Shown: positions 5,291 to 30,641, numbered from the stretch's first letter. The stretch: 32,000 bases of DNA from Candidatus Electronema aureum (GCA_004284765.1 NQJD01000026.1:3235-35234), one strand, 5' to 3'. Program-made: numbers and translations. Notes: generated from the letters alone by a model not told the origin.

Positions 5291-6139
5291 ATGAATGCTA
5301 ACCAACACACCGGCACCTTACACATCGTTGCCACGCCCATTGGCAACCTCAGCGATATTAGCCTGCGAATGCGTGAGGTCTTAGCCACTGCGGATATTAT
5401 CGCCTGCGAAGATACCCGACACACGCGCAAGCTGCTTTCTCACTTGAATATCAGCGCAAAGTTGACCAGCTGTCACCGCGATAACGAACAACAGAAAGCC
5501 ACGCAACTTGTCGAGCGGTTGCTCTCAGGCTCGACAGTGGCGTTGGTCTCTGATGCTGGGACACCCGGTCTTTCCGATCCAGGCGCAGTGCTGGTACGAG
5601 CAGCGCGGGCCGCTGGAATTACGGTAGTACCGGTGCCAGGGCCATCAGCCTTGGCAACTGCCCTTTCTGTCGCGGGGTTAGATGATTCCAACTTTTACTT
5701 TGGCGGCTTTCTCTCAGCGAAAAAGAGCGAGCGCCGGAAGCAGCTCACCGCGCTCAAGTCTTTACCTTGCCCGATGATCTTTTATGAGGCACCGCATCGG
5801 ATAGAGGCTGCGTTGCAGGACTGCTTCGATATCCTCGGCGACCGACAAGCTCAAGTCTTCCGCGAGCTAACCAAGCTCCATGAAGAACATAAAGCCGGGA
5901 TGCTGTCCGCGCTGATAGAGCAAATGAGCGGCAAGGTACTGGGGGAATTGGTGCTGCTCGTCAGTGGTGCAGAGGAAAAGCAGCATGAGGAACGGCCTGA
6001 AAATCTTGACGAGTTGATTCTCTGGCACCGTGATCAAGAAGGCAGTTCGCTCAAAGACGCAGCAAAGCAAATTGCCGATGCCTTAGATATGCCTAAATCG
6101 CAAGTGTATCAGCGCGCCCTAAGCCTCTGGCAGACATGA
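5291..6139 (+). CDS. rsmI: 16S rRNA (cytidine1402-2'-O)-methyltransferase RsmI
   Basis: N-terminal GTLHIVATPIGNLSDISLR...IACEDTRHTRKLL tetrapyrrole-methylase-fold signature typical of RsmI. The ATG at 5291 (MNANQH) is preferred over 5219. Confidence 0.88.
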   Translation: MNANQHTGTLHIVATPIGNLSDISLRMREVLATADIIACEDTRHTRKLLSHLNISAKLTSCHRDNEQQKATQLVERLLSGSTVALVSDAGTPGLSDPGAVLVRAARAAGITVVPVPGPSALATALSVAGLDDSNFYFGGFLSAKKSERRKQLTALKSLPCPMIFYEAPHRIEAALQDCFDILGDRQAQVFRELTKLHEEHKAGMLSALIEQMSGKVLGELVLLVSGAEEKQHEERPENLDELILWHRDQEGSSLKDAAKQIADALDMPKSQVYQRALSLWQT

Positions 6140-10433: not shown

Positions 10434-11621
10434 CTATCTCACCCGAACACACAGCCCCTTCAAATACTGCGTTTCCGGGATGGCCAATTTTACCGGATGA
10501 TCTGCACTTTGCCCCAACCATCGAAGTAGCTGAACATCGCGTCCACTGTCCGTTGCTGCATCCGCCACGATTTTCTGAAACAGCTCCATCTTCATGAGTC
10601 CAGAGCAAGAAAAGGTGAACAGCAGACCACCGGGACGGAGCAGTTTGAAGGCAAGCAGATTGATGTCTTTGTAACCTCGGCTTGCTCTTTCCATATTAGT
10701 CTGCGATTCAGCAAATTTTGGCGGATCAAGAATGATAAGGTCAAAGGTTCGGCCTTCTTTCAAATACTGACGCAGAAGTTGAAAAACATCTGCTTTGATA
10801 CTTGTGCACGCATTGTCAGGAAAACCGTTCAATCGCGCGTTATCGTCAATCATGCTGATAAAATCGGCCCGATCTTCTGCATGAACGACATGCTTTGCTC
10901 CGCCTTTCAGAGCTGAAATCCCAAATCCACCAGTATAGGCAAAGCAATTCAGCACTTCTGCGTCTAAGCTGTGAGAACGAACTATATTGCGGTTGTCACG
11001 CTGATCAAGATAAAAACCTGTCTTGTGTCCTTCTTTGAGATCAACGAGGAATTTCAGCCCGTTCTCTTCAATTTCCAGCAAAGTAGGCGGCTCTTCTCCG
11101 CAGAGTAGTCCCTTGCACGGCTGAAGCCCTTCCTTTTTGCGGACTTCAACATCAGATCGCTCATAGATGTTGTGCAGACCAGTCGCTTGCTTGAGTTGCT
11201 CAATCAGTACCTTTTTCCAGCGTTCCGCACCAATGCTGAGAAATTGGCAGACAATAAAATCACCGTAGCGGTCAGTAATCAGGCCGGGCAAGCCGTCTGC
11301 CTCAGCCGCGATCAGGCGGTAAGCATTTGTCTGCGTTGAAATACCCAAGGATTCCCGTAGGTTAATAGCAGTCTGGATGCGACGGGCGAAGAAGGCTTCA
11401 TCAACAAGTTCCTGCTCGTCGAATGTCCAGATGCGGAGGCGAATCTGCGAGGAAGGCGAATAGGCACCGCGCCCTAAACATTGGCCGTTGGCGGAAAAAG
11501 CATCCACGGTCGTGCCGGGCTGCGGATTGCCCTCCACCCGCTGCACCGCGCCAGAAAAAAGCCAAGGATGCCCGTGCAGCAGCGAACGCTCGCGACCTTC
11601 CTTGAGGATGAGTTTGTTCAT
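10434..11621 (-). CDS. rlmI: 23S rRNA m5C methyltransferase RlmI-like (PUA plus class I SAM-dependent methyltransferase)
   Basis: N-terminal LKEGRERSLLHGHPWLFSGAV, the FAYTGGFG SAM-binding loop and the ILDPPKFA catalytic motif. Confidence 0.8.
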   Translation of the reverse strand: MNKLILKEGRERSLLHGHPWLFSGAVQRVEGNPQPGTTVDAFSANGQCLGRGAYSPSSQIRLRIWTFDEQELVDEAFFARRIQTAINLRESLGISTQTNAYRLIAAEADGLPGLITDRYGDFIVCQFLSIGAERWKKVLIEQLKQATGLHNIYERSDVEVRKKEGLQPCKGLLCGEEPPTLLEIEENGLKFLVDLKEGHKTGFYLDQRDNRNIVRSHSLDAEVLNCFAYTGGFGISALKGGAKHVVHAEDRADFISMIDDNARLNGFPDNACTSIKADVFQLLRQYLKEGRTFDLIILDPPKFAESQTNMERASRGYKDINLLAFKLLRPGGLLFTFSCSGLMKMELFQKIVADAATDSGRDVQLLRWLGQSADHPVKLAIPETQYLKGLCVRVR

Positions 11622-11680
11622 ATTTTCCCGGTTGATTCAATGCAGAATCAACATATTTCATTGATTAAAAATCATCTTCC

Positions 11681-12466
11681 TTAGTACAGCGGCCTCGTTC
11701 CTTCACAAAGAGGAAACTTGGCACACCCCCAGAACTTACTTCCTGCATTTCTACCTTTCCGCGCTTCCCGCACAATCATTTCTGCGCCACAGCGTGGACA
11801 CAATTGGTATTTACTTTTCTTTTCAGTGGCAATTGCTTGTACATGTTTGACATGCAATCTGCGATTATGAAAACTATTTTTCAGTTTCCTATTCTTGATC
11901 GTATTAATAGCCGCATCTACCTGTGCCGAACTGAGTAGCTTTTTTTTCTGCGCTTTGATAAATGAAATAAATTCATCTCGAAGTACAACATTATCTGGCA
12001 TTTCTGTCTCAAAGCAACAGTTCCCTGCAAAAACAATCAAGGAGAAAATGTACTTTTCATTGATACCCAGCAGCTCATGAAAAGTTTTTGTGTGCTTGTA
12101 GTTCTGATGCAGCGGATTCTGAAAGCTATTGACGTATGCACCGATTTGCTGCGTCCAGCTCCGCTCCTGCCTGCCGCCAGAGATCATCCCTTGCATGTTT
12201 TTGGTTTCAATGACAAAAATACCATACGGAGAAACTACTACATGGTCAATCTGCGTAGTGCCGTTGGTCGTCGGCAGGAGCAAGTTACTAAAGGTATGAT
12301 AAACCTTCCTGTTCAAGTGCCGTCGGATGGCTCTGTTGATTCGTAATTCGCCGACCATCCCCTTGAACCGCCGCGATTTGAGCAACTTCACTATCGCGAT
12401 AGCGGGCAGGAGCAGCCAGAAGACTTTAAGCAGTCCGACAACGAATTGCGCGAAATCAGCAAACAT
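11681..12466 (-). CDS. NERD-domain protein with an N-terminal TM helix and a C-terminal topoisomerase-type zinc ribbon
   Basis: NERD core GELRINRAI...IDHVVVSPYGIFVIETKNMQG. C-terminal CPRCGAEMIVREARKGRNAGSKFWGCAKFPLC. The ATG at 12466 with a GGAG RBS is preferred over the TTG at 12532. Confidence 0.75.
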   Translation of the reverse strand: MFADFAQFVVGLLKVFWLLLPAIAIVKLLKSRRFKGMVGELRINRAIRRHLNRKVYHTFSNLLLPTTNGTTQIDHVVVSPYGIFVIETKNMQGMISGGRQERSWTQQIGAYVNSFQNPLHQNYKHTKTFHELLGINEKYIFSLIVFAGNCCFETEMPDNVVLRDEFISFIKAQKKKLLSSAQVDAAINTIKNRKLKNSFHNRRLHVKHVQAIATEKKSKYQLCPRCGAEMIVREARKGRNAGSKFWGCAKFPLCEGTRPLY

Positions 12467-15803: not shown

Positions 15804-17756
15804 CTACAAGACGACCTTACCGATTTCACAGAGACCGATAACAACGAAATTATACACAGAAAGGAGGAAAAGGAGAAGAACTAAGCTATGAAATACCGGT
15901 TTAATCACAATCCGAGAGCAATGATAATAGAGGATAGCAAACATCGGCAGCAGGGGAAGTGAATAGCGGCCTTGGGCTTGAAAGTCAACTGTCCAAGCGT
16001 GCCAGATCATGCCGCCGAGAAAGAACAGAGTGCAGCCTGTAGCAAGGCCCAGCAGTGTCAGGCCTGGTAGCCCGCCCCGCCATACAAGGGAGACCGCAAG
16101 CGTGAGGAGGAGCAGCAGACCGACAACTCGTACATAGTCGTAATAAGCGAAGGAGGCTGCATATTGGGTGAAGCCATAAACCCCAAAGGCAGAGCGGAAC
16201 GACTTCTCACCCCAGCGGTCAAGCTCTATAAACTGTTTAAATGTTTTCCCTCTGTCCCGCATCTGGAGATAAAAATGCTTCTCGTTAAGCGGGGTGTTGG
16301 GTTTGTATATGGGCTGTGCGTATTGCTCGCGAGCAGCTAAGATCAGCTCGCTTTTCTTGAAATCATTGATCCAAGCATCGGTGACTTTGACAACAGTAAA
16401 GAAGAGGCCACCGATGAGAACAATAGCTGTGAAGCGAGCAAGAGTTCTTTTGCTCCAGACAGGTGGTGCAACTCGTATTCGCCAGAGAAAATACAGGAAG
16501 AAGAACACATAGAGGAAGTAAAAGTTCTGCTTCTGAAACAAAAGCAGACCTAAGAGCAAGCCGAGCCAGAGAGATGCGAACCAGCCGTATTTTTTTAACT
16601 CATCCCTGAGCAAGGTGTTGAGGGTTGATCGCTCTGTAGCTAATTGATACGCAGCGAACAGACAAAGACAAACAGAGAGGGCCTCAGAATTGCAATAACT
16701 GAACACATACCATATCTGCGGAGAAATCAGCAGCGAGAGAAGGAAGAAACGAAAATCTGCCTTGCCAAAGGCATACAGCACTAAGACAAGAAAGAGCAAC
16801 ACATTGAACAGCCGCTGGGCGGAATACTGCTCAAGATGAAGCGGCTCGATGAAATGCAGATATTTCCCGACGATTAGATAATATATCTCACCTGAATGCA
16901 GGCGTGAAACCCCGTAAGCACTATACGTGTGGGTAATAGCCGGGTCGCCGACTCTCGGTGGGAGGAAGTGATCTTTGTAATACCCCGCTGATGCTATGTG
17001 CATGTTTTCATCAGGATGTGTGTTATATGCACTTAGAGTTGCCATGACCAAGATCAAGGCTAAGACAAAAGTAGCCAGCACCGGAATGAAATTCAGCTGG
17101 TTGAAAAAGAGGCGGGTGAGAAGATAACAGCCAACCGCCAAGAACAAGATACCCAGCTCATGTTCGAATTCATCAAACCAAGGAACGTGTCTCTCCATCT
17201 TTGGCAGGGAAAGCTCTACCTGCGAATCACCTTTATGAACTGCCATACTGACACCGCCTTCTGGCAGCGGAGTCATGCTTTTAACTCCAGCTATCACTCG
17301 CAGACGAGTAGCAAAATCAGCAGGACTTTGTACCTGATACAGGGGAAAGCCGCTCTGCTGGAGTGTAATCAGCCGGATGGTGATAGTAGCCGCCTTGTTT
17401 TCACTGGGGTCTAAGCGCAAACGATCAAGATGGAAAACATTGGTGACACTGATAGCATAACGGGACACGCCGGGCTTGATCAGCAGTTGCGCTGATTTCC
17501 TTTCACTGTAGTTCCCGTGCTTATCGGGCCAAAAGACCTGAAGGATAGTGCGGGTATCAGTCTCCAGCTCCAATTCAACCAATGTCCTATTGAAGATAAA
17601 GAAGTAATAGCCTGCACTGAGAACGAAGAACAGCAGGAGAACAAAGAGCCAATACTTAGGCGGTGATGCTTCATCATGAGACACTGCGACACCTGAGCCA
17701 ACTCCGTGTAAAGGCGGCGCAGTTGAAAAACGGGGGAACAGATTAAGCAGCTGCAT
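15804..17756 (-). CDS. Large polytopic membrane protein, GT-C-like (possible glycosyltransferase or polymerase), with an N-terminal extracytoplasmic module
   Basis: At least 12 hydrophobic helices. A HPDENMH loop motif follows the first TM cluster. The start is ambiguous: ATG at 17756 or TTG at 17813. Confidence 0.6.
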   Translation of the reverse strand: MQLLNLFPRFSTAPPLHGVGSGVAVSHDEASPPKYWLFVLLLFFVLSAGYYFFIFNRTLVELELETDTRTILQVFWPDKHGNYSERKSAQLLIKPGVSRYAISVTNVFHLDRLRLDPSENKAATITIRLITLQQSGFPLYQVQSPADFATRLRVIAGVKSMTPLPEGGVSMAVHKGDSQVELSLPKMERHVPWFDEFEHELGILFLAVGCYLLTRLFFNQLNFIPVLATFVLALILVMATLSAYNTHPDENMHIASAGYYKDHFLPPRVGDPAITHTYSAYGVSRLHSGEIYYLIVGKYLHFIEPLHLEQYSAQRLFNVLLFLVLVLYAFGKADFRFFLLSLLISPQIWYVFSYCNSEALSVCLCLFAAYQLATERSTLNTLLRDELKKYGWFASLWLGLLLGLLLFQKQNFYFLYVFFFLYFLWRIRVAPPVWSKRTLARFTAIVLIGGLFFTVVKVTDAWINDFKKSELILAAREQYAQPIYKPNTPLNEKHFYLQMRDRGKTFKQFIELDRWGEKSFRSAFGVYGFTQYAASFAYYDYVRVVGLLLLLTLAVSLVWRGGLPGLTLLGLATGCTLFFLGGMIWHAWTVDFQAQGRYSLPLLPMFAILYYHCSRIVIKPVFHSLVLLLFLLSVYNFVVIGLCEIGKVVL

Positions 17757-17784
17757 GAAAAGAGACCGTGAATGAGATTGATGA

Positions 17785-19398
17785 TTATGCGGAACGAAGG
17801 AAGGGCCGTTCAATCAGGGCATAGGTGAAGCAGGCGAAAAGATAACTCAGCAGCAGGGTGGAAACAAACAGCGGAAAGCCCGACAGATGGTTGATTCCAC
17901 CGTAGTACGCTGCGCCTTTACGGATCAGCTCAAGCATCAGGGGATGAAAGAGATAGATGCTGAACGACACCAAACTGAGCGCACGCAGCGGAAGGGAAGA
18001 CAGTATTCGGGTGATTGCAGATGCAGGGCCAGCGGCCAGCACTGCCAAGATCAGCACAGCGGCAGCCGTACCAAACCAAGAGAAATACATTTGGGTGAAT
18101 ATCCGCGTGCCAGTACCCCAGAGGTGTTCCTCTGAACCAAGGAGAAAGAACAGTAGCAACGCAGTGCTGATGCCTGCTCCCCACGGTTCCATTTTCTTGT
18201 GCAGCTCTGGTTTATCTCTTCTCTGCCAAATGCCGTAGTAGAGCCACGAGGCAATAATTCCGGCAAGGAAGACTCCGAAGTAAGGTCGCAGCTTGATGTT
18301 ATTCATGCCGTATAAGAAAAGAACGTTTACATCAAAATAGCGGTTACTCAGGAGCATTAGAGCAAGTAGTGCGGGGATAACTAACCAAGGACGTAGCTGG
18401 AAGAGCAGTAAGCTGACCAGCATCAAGAGGGGAGTGAGCAGGTAGAAGAACATCTCCTGTGGCACTACCCAGAGATGCCCTGCGCCCTTGAGAAAGAGGA
18501 GATGAAGCAGTGCTTCATCAAAGCGAGCGGTAAAGAGATAGACTATGACAATATAGGTGTAATACAGCGGCAATATTCTACGCAGCCGACGAGCAAAGAA
18601 GTGCTGCCAGCTCGCTACAGACAGCGCTCTCTCTGGCTGCTGTACAAAGGGTTTAGCAAGGAGAAAGCCGCTCAAAGTCATGAAGATCCACACACCGCTG
18701 GCACCGAGTCCTTTGAACAGACCCCAAGTGTGATCCGCAATCACCATCAGCATCGCAAGCCCGCGTAGGCCGTCGAGTGCGTTAATGTTTTCGCCGATAG
18801 AAGGCTGCTTGCTGTACAGGTCAGAAAAAGGGACCAAACCGCTGATCTTTGTCTGCGAAAGGAGGCTGAAAGCCAACAGAGAAAAGAGCAGCGGCAGGCC
18901 CCACAGAAGAAGCGGATTGGGCTTGAGCAGCGACGTGTTGTAAGTAAGGTAGGAATCCTCACCACTTTGAATCTCAGCATATTCCTGCTGCGAGCGAACA
19001 GTCGCGTCTGCCGCCTGCGGGCTGAACAACCGTTGGATATCTTCCGGCCAGAGAACGCGTTCACCGGCATACGTGCCAGCCACAGTAAGCTTGTGTAACC
19101 GCACTGTGCCGGGCCTATCGCCCAAATCTATCCTAAGTTTTCTTGCGGGAGCGTTATGAAGATTGATGCGCACGGTTTGCAGCTGATTCGGTTCGATCAT
19201 ACCAGAGAAAACTGAATGCTGCTCGCTAAATGCACCGCTGCTGGTGTAATAAACTTGGAAACGGTCGGGGTGATCAAGCTGCACGATCAGTTCAACAAAG
19301 TTCGCACCGAACAAAACAGTTTGACAGACAACAAACACCGCCGCAAATACCAACAACGCTGCGGCTGCGGCAAACAAATTCTTGCGGGTACGTCTCAT
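17785..19398 (-). CDS. Acyltransferase family 3 (OafA/YrhL-like O-acyltransferase) with an N-terminal TM helix and extracytoplasmic module
   Basis: AT3 signature ALDGLRGLAMLMVIADH followed by about 10 TM helices. The N-terminal 150 aa form a non-AT3 module. Confidence 0.8.
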   Translation of the reverse strand: MRRTRKNLFAAAAALLVFAAVFVVCQTVLFGANFVELIVQLDHPDRFQVYYTSSGAFSEQHSVFSGMIEPNQLQTVRINLHNAPARKLRIDLGDRPGTVRLHKLTVAGTYAGERVLWPEDIQRLFSPQAADATVRSQQEYAEIQSGEDSYLTYNTSLLKPNPLLLWGLPLLFSLLAFSLLSQTKISGLVPFSDLYSKQPSIGENINALDGLRGLAMLMVIADHTWGLFKGLGASGVWIFMTLSGFLLAKPFVQQPERALSVASWQHFFARRLRRILPLYYTYIVIVYLFTARFDEALLHLLFLKGAGHLWVVPQEMFFYLLTPLLMLVSLLLFQLRPWLVIPALLALMLLSNRYFDVNVLFLYGMNNIKLRPYFGVFLAGIIASWLYYGIWQRRDKPELHKKMEPWGAGISTALLLFFLLGSEEHLWGTGTRIFTQMYFSWFGTAAAVLILAVLAAGPASAITRILSSLPLRALSLVSFSIYLFHPLMLELIRKGAAYYGGINHLSGFPLFVSTLLLSYLFACFTYALIERPFLRSA

Positions 19399-19638
19399 TT
19401 ATCGCTTTCTGATGCGCTGATACAGACGGTGAAGTTTATCTTCAAAGGGTACGAGCAGCGGGAAGATAAACCGGCCTAACGTGTGCGAGAGCAGCAGTAC
19501 CAGCTGCCCTTTCTTGTCCGCGCCATAGCTGAGGTTACCCAGCGGGATGAGTTTGTTGCACAGGAGCGTGTGGATAATCCGCGTTATCTCACCCTCGCCT
19601 AAGTCATAGTCTTTGCCGGTAACGTAGTGTTCTTTCAT
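19399..19638 (-). CDS. Small hypothetical protein (79 aa), first gene of the minus-strand operon
   Basis: ATG at 19638. The stop TAA directly abuts the downstream ATG (TAAATG). The ORF-track extension to 19854 crosses a 23-nt-period repeat and is unlikely to be coding. Confidence 0.35.
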   Translation of the reverse strand: MKEHYVTGKDYDLGEGEITRIIHTLLCNKLIPLGNLSYGADKKGQLVLLLSHTLGRFIFPLLVPFEDKLHRLYQRIRKR

Positions 19639-19716
19639 GTCAAGTTCTGGGTCATGGTCTTCATGGGCAGCGGTTCTCTCCTGCGGCTCAATCTCAGCCC
19701 TCAGTGGGAGCGTTTC

Positions 19717-19808
19717 TGGTACCGTAATACCAGCGAGGTTGGTATTACGGTAGGAGCGAGGCTGGTACCATGGTACCAGCGACGTTAGTACCATGGTACC
19801 AGAAATGC
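19717..19808. repeat. Four tandem 23-bp units, each centred on a TGGTACC-N2-GGTACCA-type palindrome
   Basis: Units start at 19717, 19740, 19763 and 19786. Unit 3 contains the perfect 16-bp palindrome TGGTACCATGGTACCA. By hand count the other units match unit 3 at 16-19 of 23 positions. Confidence 0.9.
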
Positions 19809-19924
19809 TCCCTTCTGCTTGTGAGATTATCTCATAAGCAGGTGTGGGTTGCAAGGGCGCAAGTGTTTCGATCAGTAAGCTGGGCTAATAGACTTCGTGC
19901 AGAAGCCGCAGAGTGCAGCGATGC

Positions 19925-20022: not shown

Positions 20023-22098
<2,076 letters not shown>

Positions 22099-22188
22099 TC
22101 AGCTCGGTGAATGAGGGACGTAGGCTGTCGCCGCTACTATATATGGAGTTTAAAAAGTTGTACAGAGGAATCAGCGAGACTGGCAGCC

Positions 22189-22211
22189 CTACCAGAACCA
22201 CTTTAGCTCGG
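22189..22211 (-). repeat. Left direct repeat of the island: orphan copy of the last codons of a DUF4105-type gene (AELKWFW-stop)
   Basis: CTACCAGAACCACTTTAGCTCGG matches 25541-25563 at 21 of 23 positions and 28794-28816 at 20 of 23 (hand counts). Confidence 0.75.
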
Positions 22212-22235
22212 CAAGTATCCAACGGATAAAATCTA

Positions 22236-22265
22236 TTGACAATCAGGTAGAGTATTTTGTATAGC
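22236..22265 (+). promoter_or_regulatory. Sigma-70-like promoter candidate for the three-gene operon
   Basis: TTGACA (22236-22241), an 18-nt spacer, then TATAGC (22260-22265). It lies about 100 nt upstream of the ATG at 22364. Confidence 0.4.
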
Positions 22266-22363
22266 CTTGGCTATTGATGCAACATCCCGCCAAGTTTCTT
22301 TGGCGAGTGAGAGGGTGCCGAATCTCGGTGAAAATCAGATTGTCAAGGAGGAAGCACATAGCT

Positions 22364-22780
22364 ATGCAGTGTGATTTTTACGACGCTCATGACCGTCACT
22401 GGCAGGATGCCGAGCAGCTTTTTCAGGCCCAGCGTTGGGCCAATGCGGATCATTTGTATGGCGTTGCAGCAGAGTGTGGTTTAAAGGCACTGATGCTGAA
22501 GTTCGGCATGGTTTTCAATTCAAACAAGGATATGCCTAACGATAAGAAAGATAGGGAACATGCCAATGGTATCTGGGCGCGTTATGAAAGTTACCGCTCA
22601 GGACATCAACAAGGTGTAAGCTATGGCCTGCCGTCAGCTAACCCGTTCCAAGATTGGCATGTCTCTCAACGTTATGCCCACCAAGCGGATTTTGATATAA
22701 TCCGTGCCGAATCGCACCGAAAAGGAGCCGAGTTGGTTTGCAAGCTCATAAAACAAGCTAAAACGGATGGGTTGATATGA
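22364..22780 (+). CDS. Small helical protein, HEPN-like fold candidate (138 aa)
   Basis: AAGGAGGA RBS at 22345-22352. N-terminal HEPN-like helices HWQDAEQLFQAQRWANADHLYGVAAECGLKALML and a later WHVSQRYAHQ. A canonical Rx4-6H motif is not evident. Confidence 0.6.
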   Translation: MQCDFYDAHDRHWQDAEQLFQAQRWANADHLYGVAAECGLKALMLKFGMVFNSNKDMPNDKKDREHANGIWARYESYRSGHQQGVSYGLPSANPFQDWHVSQRYAHQADFDIIRAESHRKGAELVCKLIKQAKTDGLI

Positions 22781-24072
22781 TTACCTTTGATCAAGTTCTG
22801 CCGAAAGTTCATGAGATTCTGAAGCCGCACTCAGACACGATAAGCCGGATACAGCCTGTGATTGTCAATAGAGACCTTAATGGCCGGGTGCGTTTGATTA
22901 TCCGAGAAACGATGAAAGGTAATTCAGTAGCGATGGCGGCAATCAAGACGATTGCCGCCGAACTCGCAGAGCAGCTAAAGCCGCATTCTTTCCCCGCTGG
23001 ACAAGTCGTCCTGTTTGAAGATGATGATATGGAGAGTCTGCTTGCTGCTGCGCCAACTTTTCCCTTGGAGGACATTGAAGGCGTTTACGTTATGGACCGA
23101 CTGGCCAATGAAAGCCGCTGGGCCAGCATTGCACCGCTTTCATTAGGTGTTCCTCGTGCGGTATTCTTCTCCATTAAGGGCGGTGTTGGCCGTTCCACCG
23201 CTATGGCGGTCTTGGCCTGGTCGCTGGCGCAGGCGGGCAAGCGGGTGCTGGTACTGGATTTGGATCTTGAATCACCTGGACTGTCTTCAGCCTTGCTGCC
23301 AGCCGAACGACAGCCCGCCTATGGCATTGCCGATTGGCTGGTCGAGGATTTAGTGGACAACGGCGATGCTGTATTTGAAGACATGATTGCCATCAGCACA
23401 CTTTCCCATGATGGCGAAATAGACGTGGTGCCAGCACATGGCCGCAATCCAGGCGAATACATTTCCAAGCTTGGTCGGGTCTGGATGCCCAAGATAGACA
23501 GTGACGGCAAGCGTGAAAGCTGGTCGCAACGTCTTGGACGGCTGCTGAACAAACTGGAAGAACACTTGCAGCCTGATGTCATTTTGATTGATTCACGCTC
23601 TGGCATTGATGAAGTGGCCTCAAGCTGCGTCACGGACTTGGGAGCCAGCTTGGTACTGCTCTTTGCCATCGATGGCGGACAGACTTGGTCGGGCTACCAA
23701 ATGCTGTTTGGTCATTGGCATCAAGCTGGGGTTGCCCGGGAAATTCGGGAACGTTTGCAGCTCGTGGGTGCGATGATTCCTGAAACCGATGCCGCTGACT
23801 ACTTCAGCAGTCTGTGCGAAAAGAGCTGGGATATGTTTTCCAACTCTCTTTATGACGAAGTGCCGCCCGGTGTCCCTATGGGTGAGCTGTTCAATTTTGA
23901 CAACAGTGATGAGACTGCTCCGCACTTCCCTTGGCCCATCCGCTGGCATCGGGGATTTGCTGCCCTGTCCTCTCTGCACTCGCACCTTGAGACGATAGAT
24001 GAAGTCCAAGTAGAGACGGTTTTCGGTTCCTTTATCAAAAGCTACGCTCTCTGCGGGGGCAGAATCTCATGA
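22777..24072 (+). CDS. ParA/MinD-like P-loop ATPase with a variant Walker A KGGVGRST and a 125-aa N-terminal domain of unknown type
   Basis: FFSIKGGVGRSTAMAVLAWSLAQAGKRVLVLDLDLESPGL (deviant Walker A with Arg in place of the second Lys). Walker B-like VILIDSRSG. The start overlaps the upstream stop (ATGA). Confidence 0.8.
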   Translation: MITFDQVLPKVHEILKPHSDTISRIQPVIVNRDLNGRVRLIIRETMKGNSVAMAAIKTIAAELAEQLKPHSFPAGQVVLFEDDDMESLLAAAPTFPLEDIEGVYVMDRLANESRWASIAPLSLGVPRAVFFSIKGGVGRSTAMAVLAWSLAQAGKRVLVLDLDLESPGLSSALLPAERQPAYGIADWLVEDLVDNGDAVFEDMIAISTLSHDGEIDVVPAHGRNPGEYISKLGRVWMPKIDSDGKRESWSQRLGRLLNKLEEHLQPDVILIDSRSGIDEVASSCVTDLGASLVLLFAIDGGQTWSGYQMLFGHWHQAGVAREIRERLQLVGAMIPETDAADYFSSLCEKSWDMFSNSLYDEVPPGVPMGELFNFDNSDETAPHFPWPIRWHRGFAALSSLHSHLETIDEVQVETVFGSFIKSYALCGGRIS

Positions 24073-25505
24073 CTGAAGTTAATCTAATCCGTGATGCCAT
24101 TATTGCTGCTCTTCCTGCGGAGACATCAAATTACGGTGAAGTGCCAAAAACGGGTCATTTGTATGTGCCGCCAGCTCATTTGAAAGCTCTGCGGTTAGAA
24201 AGCTGTCTGGTGGTCGGAACCCGCGGCGTAGGTAAATCGTTTTGGACCGCAGCATTGGGTTCTGAATCCATTCGCGCTGCTCTTGGACAATCAGTCTCTG
24301 CCCTGAAAACTGCCCGCGTTTATATCAGCTTCTCAGGAGTGGACAGAATTGAGGATTATCCCAATGCTGACATTTTTTCCCGCTTTTCAGAACAAGAGAA
24401 ATCGTTCTATGACCTTTGGCGATGTGTCATCCTGCGCTGGCTTGCCAAAGAAATTCTCAATCAGCAGATTCCTAATGATAGATGGGAGGACACAGCGGAC
24501 TGGCTGAAAAGCAATCCTGAAGATGCGGCCCGCATCGTTCAGCAGTCCAGCCAGAAATTGAATGATGACAATCAGCATGGGTTGTTTCTGTTTGATGCCT
24601 TGGATCGAACCAGCCAGAACTGGAAGACGATGGACAATATTGTTCGTGATCTGTTGCGAACAGCTCTCTGGCTTAAGTCTTATCCAAAACTCAGCGCAAA
24701 GATTTTCCTGCGGGAAGATCAGTTCGAGCGCACCGTGACTGATTTCCCCGATGCCTCGAAACTTCTGGCAACCAAAGCCGAATTGAATTGGGCACAGCAT
24801 GACCTGCACGGACTGCTGTGGCAGATGCTGATTAACGCCCCTGATAAGCATGGAGAATGCCTGCGGGCGGTTTATCAGAGAGTGACGGGAGCCGCTGAAG
24901 TTGAAATGAATAGCGGCTGGTGGCTGGCAGAAGAGATTAAACGGGAAAACACGATCCAGCGCAATCTGTTTAAAGCCCTAGCCGGGCCGTGGATGGGGAA
25001 AGATCGACGGCGGGGTGTGCCTTACGTATGGTCGGTCAGCCATTTAGCAGACGGGCGAGGTCGCACTTCGCCCCGCTCTTTCCTTGCTGCAATCCGTCAA
25101 GCTGCAGAAGATTCACAGGAGCGTTATCATGACTACTCGTTGGCATTGCATTACGAAAGCATTAAACGAGGAATTCAGAAAGCATCTGATATCCGTGTCA
25201 GTGAAATGGCTGAAGATTATCCTTGGGTGCGTACTTTTTTGGAACCATTAAAAGGATTGACAGTACCCTGTGAGTTCGATCTGGTATTGGAACGATGGAT
25301 ATCCAGCTTTCCATCTGGCCCTGAAAGCGCACACGGCTCTGGACTCCCTCCGCAACATGCAGCACGGGGCTGGGAAGGAGTGAGAGAAGACCTACTGAGG
25401 TTAGGTCTCTTTGAAGCGAAGAAGGATGGCCGTATCGACATGCCCGACCTCTATCGTGTCGGTTTCGGTTTAGGTCGGCGAGGTGGAGTGAAGCCTAAAA
25501 GTTAA
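24069..25505 (+). CDS. P-loop NTPase (AAA/STAND-like) with a C-terminal helical region
   Basis: Walker A VVGTRGVGKSFW and Walker B GLFLFDALDR. The start overlaps the upstream stop (ATGA). Confidence 0.75.
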   Translation: MTEVNLIRDAIIAALPAETSNYGEVPKTGHLYVPPAHLKALRLESCLVVGTRGVGKSFWTAALGSESIRAALGQSVSALKTARVYISFSGVDRIEDYPNADIFSRFSEQEKSFYDLWRCVILRWLAKEILNQQIPNDRWEDTADWLKSNPEDAARIVQQSSQKLNDDNQHGLFLFDALDRTSQNWKTMDNIVRDLLRTALWLKSYPKLSAKIFLREDQFERTVTDFPDASKLLATKAELNWAQHDLHGLLWQMLINAPDKHGECLRAVYQRVTGAAEVEMNSGWWLAEEIKRENTIQRNLFKALAGPWMGKDRRRGVPYVWSVSHLADGRGRTSPRSFLAAIRQAAEDSQERYHDYSLALHYESIKRGIQKASDIRVSEMAEDYPWVRTFLEPLKGLTVPCEFDLVLERWISSFPSGPESAHGSGLPPQHAARGWEGVREDLLRLGLFEAKKDGRIDMPDLYRVGFGLGRRGGVKPKS

Positions 25506-25540
25506 AAATTCGGCATATTGTCTATCTATCGCTGAAAGCA

Positions 25541-25625
25541 CTACCAGTACCACTTCAGCTCGGTGGAGATGGTTGCGTTCTCCGCTTGCTCAATGCCCGA
25601 TGAATAAGAAGAGGTCAAAGGAAAT
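25541..25625 (-). pseudogene. Orphan 3' fragment (about 28 codons) of a DUF4105-family paralog; its first 23 bp form the right direct repeat of the island
   Basis: The minus strand reads ...PFPLTSSYSSGIEQAENATISTELKWYW-stop. The intact gene at 28794 ends ...TSLFIGIEQAESANVSAELKWFW-stop. No upstream coding body exists: the AlgJ/X-like gene stops at 25682. Confidence 0.75.
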
Positions 25626-25681
25626 GGTGTCGATGCTGCACGGCCTGCACGGACTAAGGTACTCAGTGAGTAATACTTGCT

Positions 25682-27280
25682 TCATTGCTTTGTTGTTGGC
25701 ACAGCCTTGATGGTCAGAGAGCGGAGGAGATAGGTTCCAGTCGTTGTACCGGGATCAATGCGGATTAGCCCTTTGACATGAGGATGAGGAAGACGGAAGA
25801 GCAGCCGGTTTGCACCTTTGCGCACGTTCTGCTCGACTCTATGCTGCGGCCTGATCGTTCCCTGATCGTCAGCTGTAGTGAAATAGAGGGCAAAGTCTGT
25901 ATCCTGCGGAGCATCTACATTGACCTCCACGAGATAGCGTTCGCCGTCTGCGGGTGGAGTGAACGGCACGACAAAATAGGGATCGCTGCTGGTAGCTTGC
26001 AGCAACAGGCCGTCAGTGCTTGGTTGCAGGCGCAGATCATGCCGAAGCGACACGCTGTTGATATCCAGTGAGTTATCAACCCGCAGCCGCACCTTGTCCG
26101 AGGCCGCATACTGTGCTTCCAACACCGCAGCTGTCAGCTGTGGATCAGGCGCGATCCGTTGCATGTTCCGCGCTACCCATACGTCAAAGACAATATCAGG
26201 TTTCACATGTGAAATAAGTTGCTTCAGTTGGTCGAACGGAACGTTTGGGGAGTAGATAACTCTTTTGAAGCGTTCATTGAAGTACCGTCGAAGGCCATTG
26301 CCAAAGGAATCATGAATAACTAATGCTGTCAACTTCTGCTGAGGGCAGCCGTTGGTAGAAGGTGCTTTAGCAGCGGCCTTCCTGTCTGGTAGCAATGCTA
26401 ATTCCTGCGCCGATAGAGGTTGATCAGTACCAGCGCAGGGCTGTTTTATGTGAACAACAGGCACTGTTTCTCCCACTTCTTTCTCTAAGTGCATGAGTCG
26501 AGCTAAGTCACCAGAGAACGGTACGTTGTCTATAGAGAATTCATCCTTCGAGATTGCTCTCATCTGCGCTTCAGGGAACCATTGCTTGCAATATGCAATC
26601 ATCTGGTTGAAAGCCAGCATGGCTCCTTCGTTTGTCCAATGCGTATCCGTCTTAAAGTAAAGCTGTCTTTCTTCTTTGTGTCTCTTGAAGAGAGCATACA
26701 GATTGACGGTATCATGAAACGTGACTTCTTTGTTTGCAGCAGCAATGAATTCCTCATAGAAAGAAAGCCCTCTGCTGCGTTGTATCCGGTTCGGCAGATA
26801 AGCATCATACACAGTTATTTTATTTGGTACAGGAATAAACAAATAGCGCACTCCGATGCGGGATAGCCAGTCTCGGCGGTCAGCGAAAAGAGCGAGGTAC
26901 TCATCCATCGAGATTGCATCCGCCTGCCGCTGCCCGTAATAATCATCAATGACGGATTCTCCAGTATAAAAGAACCAGCCTTCTTTCCCTTTAATAACTA
27001 CTGGAGAAGGAGACAGATGGAGTACGTTTAAAGAGATTGCATTAGATGCCCTAATTAAACTGTCACGCAAACCGAAATGATCCTGATAAAAGATGTCAAA
27101 CTGCTTCGGAAAGGCAAGCATTCCTTGAAGATTACCCTTCACTTTTGGGAACGTTGCTAACTTTCTCTTTTCCGCTGTGGATATTTCTTTGCGAGGGCTG
27201 ACGAGGAAAAGTCCCAAGGGCACGATGAGAACGAGCAGAAAGAGAGTGGAAAGAACTGCTGAGTATATCCGATTCCCCAT
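25682..27280 (-). CDS. AlgJ/AlgX-like (DHHW-type SGNH-like) polysaccharide O-acetyltransferase with a C-terminal beta module
   Basis: N-terminal TM anchor. FKTDTHWTNEGA (the D-x-H-W catalytic motif of AlgJ/AlgX). It lies 4 nt downstream of the MBOAT gene. Confidence 0.75.
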   Translation of the reverse strand: MGNRIYSAVLSTLFLLVLIVPLGLFLVSPRKEISTAEKRKLATFPKVKGNLQGMLAFPKQFDIFYQDHFGLRDSLIRASNAISLNVLHLSPSPVVIKGKEGWFFYTGESVIDDYYGQRQADAISMDEYLALFADRRDWLSRIGVRYLFIPVPNKITVYDAYLPNRIQRSRGLSFYEEFIAAANKEVTFHDTVNLYALFKRHKEERQLYFKTDTHWTNEGAMLAFNQMIAYCKQWFPEAQMRAISKDEFSIDNVPFSGDLARLMHLEKEVGETVPVVHIKQPCAGTDQPLSAQELALLPDRKAAAKAPSTNGCPQQKLTALVIHDSFGNGLRRYFNERFKRVIYSPNVPFDQLKQLISHVKPDIVFDVWVARNMQRIAPDPQLTAAVLEAQYAASDKVRLRVDNSLDINSVSLRHDLRLQPSTDGLLLQATSSDPYFVVPFTPPADGERYLVEVNVDAPQDTDFALYFTTADDQGTIRPQHRVEQNVRKGANRLLFRLPHPHVKGLIRIDPGTTTGTYLLRSLTIKAVPTTKQ

Positions 27281-27284
27281 AGTT

Positions 27285-28706
27285 TCAGAACCGGAAGTAA
27301 ATAAATGGGTTGTAGGAATTCACCGCCAGCGAGGCGGCGGAGTAGAGCAGTATGGCGGTGATCAGCAGCAGCTTTACGGCCTGTGCAGGTAGGGCCAGTA
27401 TCGCAGTGGTTGGCTGCAAATTCTTTCGCAACCAAGGATAAAGAGGCGCACTCAACATAATTCCAGCAGCAAGGGAACAGCACCACCTGCTGTCAAGCCT
27501 CATGCTGATCTGCGGCAACATTGTGTCAGCCTTGGCAAATCCGTACATAGCTGCAAAATAGCTCCCCACATCAGCCAGCCGCTCAAGCCGAAAGAGCACC
27601 CAGCCATTACCGATCACGAAGAGTGTGTACATATGCTGCCAGAACGGATGCTTCTGATCCAGCATCTTGCCGAAACGTCCGCGTTCTACGACAAGAAAGA
27701 CTCCGTACAGCAGTCCCCAAAGGATGAAGTTCCAACTTGCGCCGTGCCAGAGGCCGCAGAGCAAGAAGACAATAAGCAGATTGAAACCAGTGCGTACCGC
27801 TCCGTGCCGGTTGCCACCGAGCGGAATGTAGAGATAATCGCGCAACCAAGTAGAGAGAGACATATGCCATCGCCGCCAAAACTCTCGTACCGAGCGGCTG
27901 ATGTAGGGATAGTTGAAATTTTCTAAGAGATGAAAGCCGAACATTCGGCCTAAGCCGATGGCCATATCCGAATAGCCTGAAAAATCAAAATAGATTTGCA
28001 AACTATAGCAAAGGACACCCAGCCAAGCAGTGCCAGTTGAAAGTGTTTCTGCGGGTAGAGTGAAAATTTGATCAGCCAATTGACCCACGGAATTGGCGAT
28101 CAGCACCTTTTTTCCTAAGCCGAAGATGAAACGTTCTGCACCTGCGGCAAAGTCAGTGAGAGTAATTGTTCGTTGTTTAATCTGCTCGGCAATATCGTTG
28201 TAGCGGACAATAGGGCCAGCAATGAGCCGAGGAAAGAGAGAGAAATACAGTCCGATATACAGAGGATTCTTCTGGGCTGGATATTTCTGCCGGTAGATAT
28301 CAATCAGATACGACAGGGCTTCAAAGGTGAAAAAAGAAATGCCGATAGGCAGATGCACTTTCTCCAATACAAGATGCTCGATACCGAACTGAGTAAGAAG
28401 CGCATTGAAATTGGCAACGATAAAATTGGCATACTTAAAGAATCCTAGCAGACCAAGATTGACAGCCACTGCCACTGCCAAGACTAACTTCTCTGTTTTT
28501 CCTCGCCGACTGATCAGCAGACCGAAGAGGTAATTGATAAAAGCCGAGGCGATGAGGACGAACACGAAAAGTTGCTCGCCCCAGAAATAGAAAAGAATAC
28601 TGCCTGCCAGCAGGAGAACATTCCGTCCCCTTGCTCCAGCACAGAGATGCGCTGCCAAGATGATCGGCAGGAAAAAGAAAAGAAAAGTTATGGAGCTGAA
28701 AAGCAT
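27285..28706 (-). CDS. MBOAT family O-acyltransferase (AlgI/DltB-like)
   Basis: FWRRWHMSLSTWLRDYLYIPLGGNR with the conserved MBOAT His. Polytopic membrane protein. Confidence 0.9.
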   Translation of the reverse strand: MLFSSITFLFFFLPIILAAHLCAGARGRNVLLLAGSILFYFWGEQLFVFVLIASAFINYLFGLLISRRGKTEKLVLAVAVAVNLGLLGFFKYANFIVANFNALLTQFGIEHLVLEKVHLPIGISFFTFEALSYLIDIYRQKYPAQKNPLYIGLYFSLFPRLIAGPIVRYNDIAEQIKQRTITLTDFAAGAERFIFGLGKKVLIANSVGQLADQIFTLPAETLSTGTAWLGVLCYSLQIYFDFSGYSDMAIGLGRMFGFHLLENFNYPYISRSVREFWRRWHMSLSTWLRDYLYIPLGGNRHGAVRTGFNLLIVFLLCGLWHGASWNFILWGLLYGVFLVVERGRFGKMLDQKHPFWQHMYTLFVIGNGWVLFRLERLADVGSYFAAMYGFAKADTMLPQISMRLDSRWCCSLAAGIMLSAPLYPWLRKNLQPTTAILALPAQAVKLLLITAILLYSAASLAVNSYNPFIYFRF

Positions 28707-28793: not shown

Positions 28794-30641
28794 TTACCAG
28801 AACCACTTCAGTTCGGCGGAGACGTTGGCACTCTCTGCCTGCTCAATACCAATGAACAAGGAGGTCTGTGCGGCGAATCCCCACTGGAGTTCCGCGCTGA
28901 CAAAGGGCTGCGCGTTGCCCTGATAGTCGGTAGTCTCTATCCCGGCCAGCAGGCGACCTTTGAGATTGCCATTCCCAGCAAGCAGACCAAGATGCGGGCG
29001 CAGGCGGAGATACGGCTCTACGCTGTGCGCGGCTGCGTCAGTCATGGCGTAGGCTGTAAGCTGCGGGCTAATCTTCCAAGCACGTCCTGCCCCGAACGCA
29101 AAGAAGGCATCGTAGTCATCAGCATCTTGGGCAAGGCCCGTGCGCAGTTGCCACGACCAAGGATTTTCCCCGTCTGCTGTGATGAAGTCCGTCTTGATTG
29201 TGCGGATTCTGATCAGATCGAGCTGATCAAGAAAGAAGGTATCACCGATGCTGACGGCTGCGTCGAACACGGCTAACTCGTTGTCTTCCAAGCCGTTTCG
29301 CCCTAATGCCTCTTGCACAAAGGCTGCACCATGCAGGCGGAGATAGCTGCCTCGCTGCTCTTCATGACCAAAGCCAATGCTCGTCAGCATCGGGCGGTTG
29401 CCTTGGGCAGGCGAGTCCAGCGCAGGCACTTCCTTCAGAGGCTCGGTACTGGGCGGCAGGAGAAAGCGGGCAGGCAGGAACCGGTTCTTCGCTGCCTTGG
29501 TTGCTGCGCTGGGCGTGGGCTGCTCGGCAGTTAAGCGATAGTTGCTATACGCCAGCAGGGTGTCTAAGACCTCTGCTTGCCGGTCTTGCTTCAGGTGCGC
29601 GAGCTGATCAGGCAGAGCTGTCGGCCCTTGCTGCATCACTGCCTGCGTAGCTGCCTGTTCTTCCGGCTTGAGTAGGCTGAATTGATGATACAGTTTGCGC
29701 TGGGCTGAGGGAATGAAGCGTACCGCCTTGATCAAGCCCGGTTGTCCGACTGCCTTCCTTGCCTGATCAATGTCTTCGAGACGATGAAAGGTTTCAGTTG
29801 GCACATACCAGAAGCGGGCGTTCGTCAGCAGTGGTTCGTCGATAACCAGCTCCAACAGCTCGGACAAGCGGAAGGCGCAGTTCTTGTCGAGGAAGTAATA
29901 GGTGAACTTCTTTCCCAGCACCTCCCAAAGATGGAGGATCAGCAGTGTGCGCTGCGTATCAGAGAGCCGCAGCTCGTAGTCCCAGATATCGCGGAACTCA
30001 GTGCGGGAATAGACCAAATCTTGGGTGTAGAAATAGCGGTCAGAGAAACCCGCCTCATAGCCTCCACCGAGGCCGCGCAGGATGTACCGCCAGACCGGTT
30101 CATCTGGTGGCACCAAGGCACCGTAGCTGACCGTTAGATCGAACATCCCGGCTTGATCATCCTGTGCGCCAGTGTTGAGCTTGAGCAGCGAATGGCCAAA
30201 GACTGAGGCTGGATTGCCGAGATAGCCGCTGACGAGAAAGAGGCTGATTGACTGCACCTTATCCGGCAGCGACCAGCGGGCAAAGGTTGGACACTGCGGC
30301 GGAGTAAGGTTGTAGCCCGGCAGACTGATCTGCTGGGAGAGCCAGTAATAGCGGGCTGGAAAGCGGCAGCGAGCGTGGCTGTCCCCGTCCTTTGGCCAAG
30401 GCGCGTTGTAGGCAGCGAGATCAGCGCGTAGCTCGGCTTGAGGATCATGCTGACCGTCAGGGGAGAGAAAGAAATCCTCGGTGAGTATCTCGCTCTGCCT
30501 GCTGTCGCCATAATGCAGCAGCTTCAGCCACGTAGGATGCTGGGCAAGATGTTCAAGCTGGGCAGAAGACAGGGCAAAAGCAACAGACGTAGGCAGTAAG
30601 CAACTACACAGCAGAGCAGCGATAAAATATCGGCGAAGCAT
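28794..30641 (-). CDS. DUF4105 (Lnb N-terminal-like) periplasmic domain protein with a C-terminal beta-rich region
   Basis: Signal peptide, then HPTWLKLLHY and ASVFGHSLLKL motifs that I associate with DUF4105. The C-terminus ends in an aromatic residue (KWFW), as in outer-membrane beta-barrels. Confidence 0.6.
   Translation of the reverse strand: MLRRYFIAALLCSCLLPTSVAFALSSAQLEHLAQHPTWLKLLHYGDSRQSEILTEDFFLSPDGQHDPQAELRADLAAYNAPWPKDGDSHARCRFPARYYWLSQQISLPGYNLTPPQCPTFARWSLPDKVQSISLFLVSGYLGNPASVFGHSLLKLNTGAQDDQAGMFDLTVSYGALVPPDEPVWRYILRGLGGGYEAGFSDRYFYTQDLVYSRTEFRDIWDYELRLSDTQRTLLILHLWEVLGKKFTYYFLDKNCAFRLSELLELVIDEPLLTNARFWYVPTETFHRLEDIDQARKAVGQPGLIKAVRFIPSAQRKLYHQFSLLKPEEQAATQAVMQQGPTALPDQLAHLKQDRQAEVLDTLLAYSNYRLTAEQPTPSAATKAAKNRFLPARFLLPPSTEPLKEVPALDSPAQGNRPMLTSIGFGHEEQRGSYLRLHGAAFVQEALGRNGLEDNELAVFDAAVSIGDTFFLDQLDLIRIRTIKTDFITADGENPWSWQLRTGLAQDADDYDAFFAFGAGRAWKISPQLTAYAMTDAAAHSVEPYLRLRPHLGLLAGNGNLKGRLLAGIETTDYQGNAQPFVSAELQWGFAAQTSLFIGIEQAESANVSAELKWFW

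Follow-up and report, generated by a model that had tools for sequence, protein, structure and literature searches.

A copy of the predicted defence candidate PDC-M28 in the cable bacterium Candidatus Electronema aureum

A catalogued three-gene candidate

Three adjacent plus-strand genes, which we call A, B and C, lie within a 32,000-nucleotide stretch of DNA from the cable bacterium Candidatus Electronema aureum (GCA_004284765.1 NQJD01000026.1:3235-35234; hereafter the window), and together they constitute a further copy of PDC-M28, a candidate phage-defence system that is already catalogued, and not a new system. Each of the three proteins matches its PADLOC hidden Markov model (HMM) over the full length: protein A matches PDLC04558 (PDC-M28A) with an E value of 3.8e-57 (1-137/138), protein B matches PDLC04559 (PDC-M28B) at 6.3e-184 (1-427/438), and protein C matches PDLC04561 (PDC-M28C) at 1.7e-205 (1-479/480), the same-strand genes following models A, B and C in that order. 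Because the matches are full length and their E values range from 4e-57 to 2e-205, it can be ruled out that the open reading frames (ORFs) arose by chance. When PADLOC-DB v2 was scanned at E values up to 1, only PDC-M28 models matched A, B or C, and no protein of the trio matched the component HMMs of Septu, Gabija, Lamassu, PARIS, Zorya, Menshen, BREX or others. An initial annotation of this DNA had held that the trio was not Septu, Gabija, Lamassu, PARIS or Zorya, which was right, and that it could be matched to no named system, which was not: since PADLOC-DB v2 already lists PDC-M28, the trio is not a new discovery.

The PDC systems are 145 "phage defence candidates" that were nominated by guilt-by-embedding in BREX, DISARM, type I restriction-modification and Hma loci (Payne, Hughes, Fineran, Jackson 2024, bioRxiv 10.1101/2024.01.29.577857), and they entered PADLOC as predictions, without testing (same source). 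PDC-M28 itself derives from cassette CAS_00115 (FAM_01482>>FAM_02546>>FAM_01036), which has a count of 121 and the entry "Assign as candidate PDC-M28" in Table S8 of that study (bioRxiv 10.1101/2024.01.29.577857). The Electronema genes encode the same three proteins in the same order, and the embedding signal behind the candidate was reproduced in the present survey. Nothing substantive separates the two; the Electronema copy simply stands alone, and in a cable bacterium.

The genes are tightly packed, with ATGA start/stop overlaps between A and B (22777-22780) and between B and C (24069-24072), exactly as the initial annotation had described (Table 1). The mechanical ORF of gene A opens at a TTG at 22274; because all homologues begin with MQxDF at the ATG at 22364, the start was placed there. 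The strong ribosome-binding site claimed for gene A exists as an AGGAGG hexamer, although its spacing of 12 nucleotides from the ATG is on the long side. The candidate promoter, TTGACA-N18-TATAGC, fared less well: it is present, but as a pattern chosen post hoc, at a site that a generic sigma-70 scan missed, and the scan returned four promoter-like sites against 3.4 expected, which is the chance level. Comparison of the DNA upstream of gene A revealed no conserved sequence common to different loci, so that no conserved promoter or operator is evident; given also the chance-level scan, the promoter is a weak suggestion without statistical support. Scans of the window for Rfam families and tRNAs found no RNA genes.

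Table 1. Coordinates of the trio, its expression signals, its flanks and the flanking duplications at other loci (the latter listed by locus)
Feature	Position	Strand	Basis or remark
Gene A (PDC-M28A)	22364-22780	+	138 residues; ORF call and homologue starts
Gene B (PDC-M28B)	22777-24072	+	431 residues; ORF call
Gene C (PDC-M28C)	24069-25505	+	478 residues; ORF call
AGGAGG ribosome-binding site	22346-22351	+	12 nucleotides before the gene A ATG; sequence reading
Candidate promoter TTGACA-N18-TATAGC	22236-22265	+	Single exact match in the window; weak evidence
Island-specific DNA	22176-25540	+	Trio plus about 190 nucleotides upstream and 35 downstream; 3.36 kb; no recombinase
Decayed copy of the last ~75 nucleotides (including stop codon) of the DUF7843/Lnb_N/DUF7840 gene	25541-25620	-	Alignments
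Decayed, frameshifted copy of the first ~80 nucleotides of the HAD-like gene	25608-25685	-	Repeat alignment
5' end of the HAD-like gene in its intact form (20023-22083), to which the right-hand repeat corresponds	21988-22083	-	Repeat alignment
Flanking duplication, L042	7640-8264 / 11463-12087		
Flanking duplication, L076	7636-7993 / 11577-11934		
Flanking duplication, L024	7723-7977 / 11552-11805		
Flanking duplication, L010	8109-8259 / 11442-11589		
Flanking duplication, L038	8167-8213 / 11451-11497		

The three predicted proteins

Structures of proteins A and C were modelled with AlphaFold2 and compared with the PDB by Foldseek. The model of protein A (pLDDT 89.4) is a helical bundle with the four-helix, up-down arrangement of HEPN domains, and the Foldseek matches ranked 1 to 11 are HEPN domains without exception (including 2q00, 1wol, 2hsb, 1o3u, 1ufb, 4nqf and 3o10), at probabilities of 0.41-0.99, nine of them reaching at least 0.8. 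The arginine of the usual HEPN motif, R103, is invariant, and H106, at +3 from it, varies among homologues. Conservation falls instead on a set of polar residues (R11, H12, E37, K41, H66, R103 and Y104 are invariant), among which E37 and K41 form an E-x3-K motif in helix 2 (residues 25-46) and H66 lies between that helix and the next (70-79). E37, K41, H66 and R103 are invariant or nearly so in 37 close and 93 diverse sequences and in distant plasmid variants.

This is the residue pattern described for the AbiV/AF0298 variant of the HEPN superfamily, in which the histidine of the motif is lost and the arginine kept, an alternative histidine occupies the insert between helices 2 and 3, and helix 2 carries Ex3[KR] (PMC3710099). 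Protein A shares each of these features, as well as the four-helix fold, with AbiV of Lactococcus and with AF0298 HEPN-T (PDB 2hsb, the third-ranked Foldseek match), and we regard it as a HEPN protein of the AbiV/AF0298 type and a putative effector. Unlike AbiV, for which Table 1 of PMC3710099 gives no such pairing, A is always coupled to two nucleoside triphosphatases (NTPases), and its sequence similarity to AbiV lies under the Pfam threshold (17 vs 27.1 bits). Across the family, 18 of 93 diverse members match Pfam HEPN_AbiV at E values up to 0.01, the best at 23.9 bits; matches to Pfam HEPN recur as well, and no competing Pfam family recurs among the 93. A PDB profile search by sequence gave no significant match for protein A or for protein C.

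Database labels for the A family are inconsistent. Many of its members, all-helical proteins of 138 residues, are called "SAM-dependent methyltransferase" in NCBI and UniRef; because fold and motifs indicate HEPN, this label is almost certainly a mis-annotation, probably one that has been propagated. A distant homologue on a Calothrix plasmid carries the annotation "HEPN domain protein". In a 425-residue protein recovered in the representative search (P0437), a Fic/DOC domain (E 1.5e-16) is fused to a C-terminal HEPN domain of the A type, which links the A domain to another toxin-type domain.

Protein B consists of three regions: an N-terminal region (1-124) with an invariant NRDLNGRVR, a ParA/MinD-type domain, and a C-terminal region (315-431), of which the first and last gave no family match. 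The central domain carries KGGVGR at residues 134-139, its key residues invariant in homologues, and is recognised by NCBIfam NF047398 (AAA_KGGVGR) at 197.9 bits (cutoff 90) and by Pfam CbiA at 35.5 bits (25.4), ParA at 31.0 (27.1) and AAA_31 at 31.3 (27). The Walker A' and B aspartates D161, D163 and D272 are likewise invariant. What departs from the KGGxxK[ST] signature of the class is the P-loop lysine: the signature lysine, K134, is present, and the P-loop position is occupied by Arg139 in each of the 26 aligned members, as well as in variants down to 28% identity (KGGVGRS, KGGAGRT). Engineered Walker A lysine-to-arginine mutants, such as RecA K72R and SopA K120R, provide a precedent for proteins that bind ATP and hydrolyse little of it; taken with this precedent, the substitution in B predicts ATP binding with little hydrolysis.

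With the ATPases of ParABS and MinD-MinE, B has in common the lysine that marks the deviant Walker A motif (KGG...) and the aspartates of Walker A' and B, and the basic disordered tail of its partner C may recall the activating peptides of ParB, MinE and McdB, although by analogy only. Unlike those systems, B has an arginine for the P-loop lysine in every member and has a partner that is itself an ATPase, and it scores far under the equivalog cutoffs (27.8 bits against a cutoff of 180 for ParA_partition). Its PDB sequence matches to MinD, ArsA and Mrp span the P-loop region only, and its match in PHROGs is to a generic ParA. The gene downstream of B encodes the ATPase C, which is not the ParABS arrangement; a ParB-like gene was neither present in the trio gene tables examined nor recurrent among immediate neighbours, parS not having been searched for.

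Protein C is an AAA+ ATPase of the ORC/Cdc6/BrxC-like class, as indicated by its Walker motifs and by its fold. Walker A (GTRGVGKS, 50-57) and Walker B (LFLFDALD, 172-179) are intact, and the corresponding patterns GxRGxGKS and hhhFDALDR are invariant among homologues. NCBIfam NF047389 (Sll1717 family) recognises the protein at 82.5 bits against a cutoff of 75; Pfam AAA_16 (17.1 vs 32.6 bits) and NACHT (16.2 vs 26.7 bits) stay under their thresholds. The best Foldseek matches of the AlphaFold2 model (pLDDT 80) are BrxC (9zdx/9zll, E 5e-6 to 6e-5), ORC2 (1w5t/1w5s, E 1e-4) and RdrA, at TM scores of 0.3-0.4. Beyond the ATPase core lies a helical region with two short beta-hairpins, which in the model may be winged-helix-like, and the protein ends in a disordered, strongly conserved basic tail, PDLYRVGFGLGRRGGVKP, which is kept in all distant variants. 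The nearest structural relatives of C, with which it shares intact Walker A and B motifs, are BrxC, DUF499 (HmaC) and archaeal ORC/Cdc6 (E 5e-6 to 1e-4), but C has no sequence-level match to any of them, measures 478 residues where BrxC and DUF499 proteins have 1000-1200, has no PglX or PglZ partners of its own, and bears a conserved basic tail that they lack.

These comparisons uphold the domain content given in the initial annotation, namely a HEPN-like first protein, a KGGVGR ParA-like ATPase behind an unassigned N-terminal domain, and a P-loop NTPase whose C-terminal half is helical.

Distribution and possible function

The genes of the trio travel together. Homologues of protein C form more than 2,166 clusters at 90% identity in many phyla, the trio being present in Pseudomonadota, Chlorobi, Chloroflexi, Acidobacteria, Spirochaeta, Synergistetes, Nitrospirae and Peptococcaceae, and about 66 of 80 species-representative loci preserve the order A-B-C; those that deviate are at contig ends or are decayed loci with C alone, and no locus with A and B but lacking C was encountered. 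Among the 66 loci, A and B overlap by 4 nucleotides in 51, and B and C overlap by 4 or 8 nucleotides in 48. Overlaps so conserved suggest translational coupling, from which it follows that A, B and C probably form a complex. The three-gene architecture extends to plasmid variants in Enterobacter, Tistrella, Agrobacterium and Calothrix, and distant plasmid variants of 28-44% identity, including those of cyanobacterial plasmids at 28%, retain both KGGxGR and the tail of C.

Four decayed loci (L011, L020, L075 and L082) contain an intact C gene, with A, B or both deleted or fragmentary.

The setting of the trio, in contrast to its internal order, is not conserved. In the 120 immediate neighbours of the trio, 155 Pfam families are represented, nearly all of them once, and no integrase or transposase recurs among them. 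In 74 other genomes the trio has unrelated neighbours, and a polysaccharide locus surrounds it in this genome only. Plasmid copies account for 24 of 72,556 records, and no homologue of A or C was found in 50,697 phage records. The trio is thus a self-contained, portable cassette that has spread horizontally to unrelated sites in many phyla.

The sole recurrent context is embedding directly after a methyltransferase gene in BREX-type loci. The trio occurs between a DUF1156 N6-methyltransferase and a PLD/SNF2 helicase in DUF499/DUF3780 loci, which belong to Hma or Type-2 BREX-related systems (PMC12839542); it occurs between pglX and pglZ in BREX-1; and a variant of 34% identity directly follows pglX in a plasmid BREX-2. 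In these embedded loci gene A often begins 12-20 nucleotides past the methyltransferase gene. Our neighbour scan with PADLOC, which counts per family and not per protein, covered two genes to either side of the trio in 74 loci, 11 of which had a DUF1156 methyltransferase within that distance. ParA and AbiV go unmentioned in a 2026 paper on BREX diversity.

In three loci from three orders (L042, L062 and L072), the trio lies directly downstream of uvrA and is co-directional with it; uvrA adjacency may mark an insertion hot spot, or the trio may have moved along with its uvrA flanks.

We infer from these features a defence function, a role for each protein and an RNase activity for A, and propose that the trio is an NTPase-gated abortive-infection or anti-invader system, an account that we consider about evenly poised between right and wrong. 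C would be the sensor or switch ATPase and would respond to a signal from the invader, which is probably DNA or an intermediate of replication. B would be a ParA/MinD-type dimerising, nucleotide-binding adaptor, or an antitoxin-like clamp, that holds or positions A; and the basic disordered tail of C may act on B much as ParB, MinE and McdB use their basic peptides to act on ParA-type ATPases. A would be the HEPN effector, which would cleave RNA or block translation and so arrest the infected cell. The initial annotation had likewise inferred that the trio was a conflict system, of the kind carried on small islands. Portability, embedding in BREX-type loci and absence from three relatives speak for the first part, with defence remaining a prediction; as for the second, the embedding recurs, but most copies are solo and outside defence islands.

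Several observations weigh against this proposal. A literature search found no experimental evidence for PDC-M28, KGGVGR or Sll1717 proteins, and other candidates of the same catalogue have failed when assayed, among them PDC-M63 and PDC-S04 (PMC12409345) and, in another study, four of eight (PMC12881386). For protein A, the Foldseek E values are only 0.09-0.66, with TM scores of about 0.5, the Pfam HEPN_AbiV score is 17.0 bits against a gathering threshold of 27.1, and the canonical Rx4-6H is absent, there being no histidine at +5 to +7 from the invariant R103. Because both terminal regions of B are without an assigned fold, the true effector could lie there, and the roles given to B and to the tail of C are drawn by analogy only. 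In about 85% of species-level loci the trio stands by itself, surrounded by housekeeping genes and with no BREX/BR component within two genes. Finally, each of the three proteins retains 55-66% identity across phyla as distant as Desulfobacterota, Chlorobi, Chloroflexi and Peptococcaceae, a degree of conservation that would be atypical for fast-evolving immune sensors and that implies recent wide horizontal transfer together with strong purifying selection.

A more far-reaching version of the same proposal, which we think doubtful, is that PDC-M28 would be the founding example of a widespread and ancient immune class, reaching from Proteobacteria to Cyanobacteria, in which a hydrolysis-impaired KGGVGR dimer clamps an AbiV-type HEPN RNase until an ORC/BrxC-like, DNA-sensing ATPase releases it through its ParB/MinE-like basic tail, and that the class would spread by recombinase-free, homology-anchored events that leave variable duplications of host-gene ends.

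Defence might instead act on DNA, with C and B blocking the replication or segregation of incoming plasmids or phage genomes and A serving as a non-catalytic adaptor or regulator with a HEPN fold. The closest structures of C (BrxC and ORC2), the membership of B in the DNA-associated ParA/MinD class, the missing Rx4-6H of A and the embedding of the trio in DNA-targeting, BREX-type systems would all suit such a mechanism. It is nevertheless unlikely: the invariant polar residues of A fit the AbiV/AF0298 pattern that has been proposed as an alternative active site, and scans with Pfam, NCBIfam and PADLOC detected in the trio neither a nuclease domain nor any other effector domain that acts on DNA.

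The cassette could also be selfish, a toxin-antitoxin-like addiction module in which A is the toxin, B the antitoxin and C a third regulator, and which maintains itself by killing any cell from which it is lost, with no role dedicated to phage defence. Pairs of a MAE_18760-family HEPN gene and a ParA/Soj-like ATPase gene have been put forward as toxin-antitoxin modules (Anantharaman et al. 2013, PMC3710099), and the trio resembles them in that a HEPN gene stands beside a SIMIBI-class, ParA/Soj-like ATPase proposed to control the HEPN protein. The likeness of the ParA-like partners is by description only, and the trio departs from these pairs in three respects: A lacks the Rx4-6H that MAE_18760 keeps, B carries the KGGVGR substitution, and there is an obligatory third gene. 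A patchy, horizontally transferred and mostly solo distribution would also be expected of an addiction module, as would the adjacency of some plasmid copies to other toxin-antitoxin modules and recombinases and the loss of A and B, with survival of C, in the four decayed loci. But the position of the trio as an accessory gene set in three BREX-type systems is the pattern of validated defence genes, and because its plasmid copies are few, plasmid stabilisation is not its main niche. The functions of toxin-antitoxin and abortive-infection systems overlap as well. We hold this reading to be improbable.

There is still less to be said for the view that the trio is a non-autonomous accessory or regulatory module of BREX-type restriction systems, controlling or backing up, for instance, the methyltransferase or effector. 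When embedded, it always follows the methyltransferase directly and precedes the effector gene, in the same orientation and often behind the same short spacer, as this view would predict; yet the large majority of species-level loci, the window among them, have no such component within two genes, and the tested neighbours of the trio in the window match no PADLOC family. We therefore consider it very unlikely. A housekeeping role, whether in partition or chromosome segregation as a ParA-like system or in envelope-glycan biosynthesis through a BY-kinase-like ATPase, finds some encouragement in weak, P-loop-only matches of B to ParA partition proteins, MinD and the eps tyrosine autokinase and in the placement of the trio within a glycan O-acetylation locus, but it is barely credible and essentially excluded, for the partition and kinase matches are far under family cutoffs, neither a ParB partner nor a consistent polysaccharide linkage turned up in the loci for which gene tables were examined, the trio runs antisense to the glycan locus and has unrelated neighbours in 74 other genomes, and related Electronema genomes keep the HAD, Acyl_transf_3 and GDSL genes without it.

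Integration site and wider meaning

In Candidatus Electronema aureum the trio is inserted antisense into a glycan O-acetylation/modification locus, as the initial annotation had reported, and the minus-strand genes on its flanks are of the GDSL, Acyl_transf_3, HAD, AlgX/DHHW, MBOAT and Lnb_N types. Homology to the region upstream of HAD in related Electronema genomes stops at about position 22175, and three relatives keep the HAD, Acyl_transf_3 and GDSL genes but have no trio at this site. To the right of gene C lie the two decayed gene ends listed in Table 1. The Lnb_N 3' remnant aligns to the window at 28795-28870 and to Electronema sp. PJ (L090) at 5338-5410; the HAD 5' scar has an ATG that still overlaps the AlgX-like stop codon (ATGA); and the two are joined head-to-tail at a GACCTC microhomology, which gives the order Lnb_N, MBOAT, AlgX, HAD 5' scar and Lnb_N 3' scar, trio, HAD.

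The direct repeats that had been said to bracket the trio are therefore real, but they are decayed ends of host genes, left as scars of recombination, and not the ends of an element. Because the 5' end of HAD and the 3' end of Lnb_N meet in the right-hand scar, the flanking scars are the signature of a duplicative merger in which two variants of the locus were combined. Plausible routes are homology-facilitated illegitimate recombination and a single crossover with a circularised fragment, and by either the original place of the trio was between Lnb_N and HAD. A simple target-site duplication was considered for the window and rejected, since the right-hand scar fuses HAD 5' and Lnb_N 3' sequence; mobile-element ends were rejected as well, the boundaries lying 8 to more than 500 nucleotides from the ORFs with no recurrent integrase or transposase.

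Similar traces occur elsewhere. Of 45 complete loci, 9 carry downstream of C a second copy of a host segment that lies upstream of A, compared with 2 of 80 control pseudo-islands (Fisher p = 0.0017). The repeated segments are 27-625 nucleotides long and specific to each genome (one consists of the last 218 codons of uvrA), and in the duplications inspected the intact gene flanks A whereas the fragment flanks C. This pattern suggests that the trio spreads without a recombinase, by homology-anchored integration.

The surrounding glycan locus is itself, as comparison with L090, L091 and L092 shows, a recombination hot spot. Upstream of HAD, the window at 25682-28706 has MBOAT and AlgX-like genes where Electronema sp. 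PJ has an unknown protein of 811 residues, and in Electronema sp. V4 and a JGI contig the corresponding region holds unrelated genes. Two further minus-strand genes of the locus, at 15804-17813 (about 650-669 residues) and 19399-19854 (131-151 residues), are conserved, with Electronema orthologues, and have no Pfam or PADLOC match. Just beyond the window, on the right of gene C at a distance of about 8.4-10.8 kb (L001, 18433-20812), is a loose cluster of defence- or toxin-antitoxin-like genes made up of an AriA-like ABC ATPase (PADLOC AriA, E 1e-29; AAA_15/AAA_21) with no AriB partner and a pair formed by a minimal nucleotidyltransferase and an NTase_sub_bind (HEPN-type) protein.

In its own right the window has modest value: it places the candidate on record for a cable bacterium, yields residue-level hypotheses for mutagenesis and exposes a mis-annotated family. 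To PDC-M28 the analysis adds those residue-level hypotheses and an integration signature, and the recurrent flanking duplications suggest how cassettes that have no recombinase move between genomes. If PDC-M28 is validated, it would be a very widespread three-gene immune system, with more than 2,000 clusters of its C protein at 90% identity in many phyla, and a natural test case for a ParA-type protein with a Walker A lysine-to-arginine change. Its component logic, in which two different NTPases would control a non-canonical HEPN protein, is unusual, and if B does act as a clamp, the system would represent a new wiring of partition-type ATPases into immunity.

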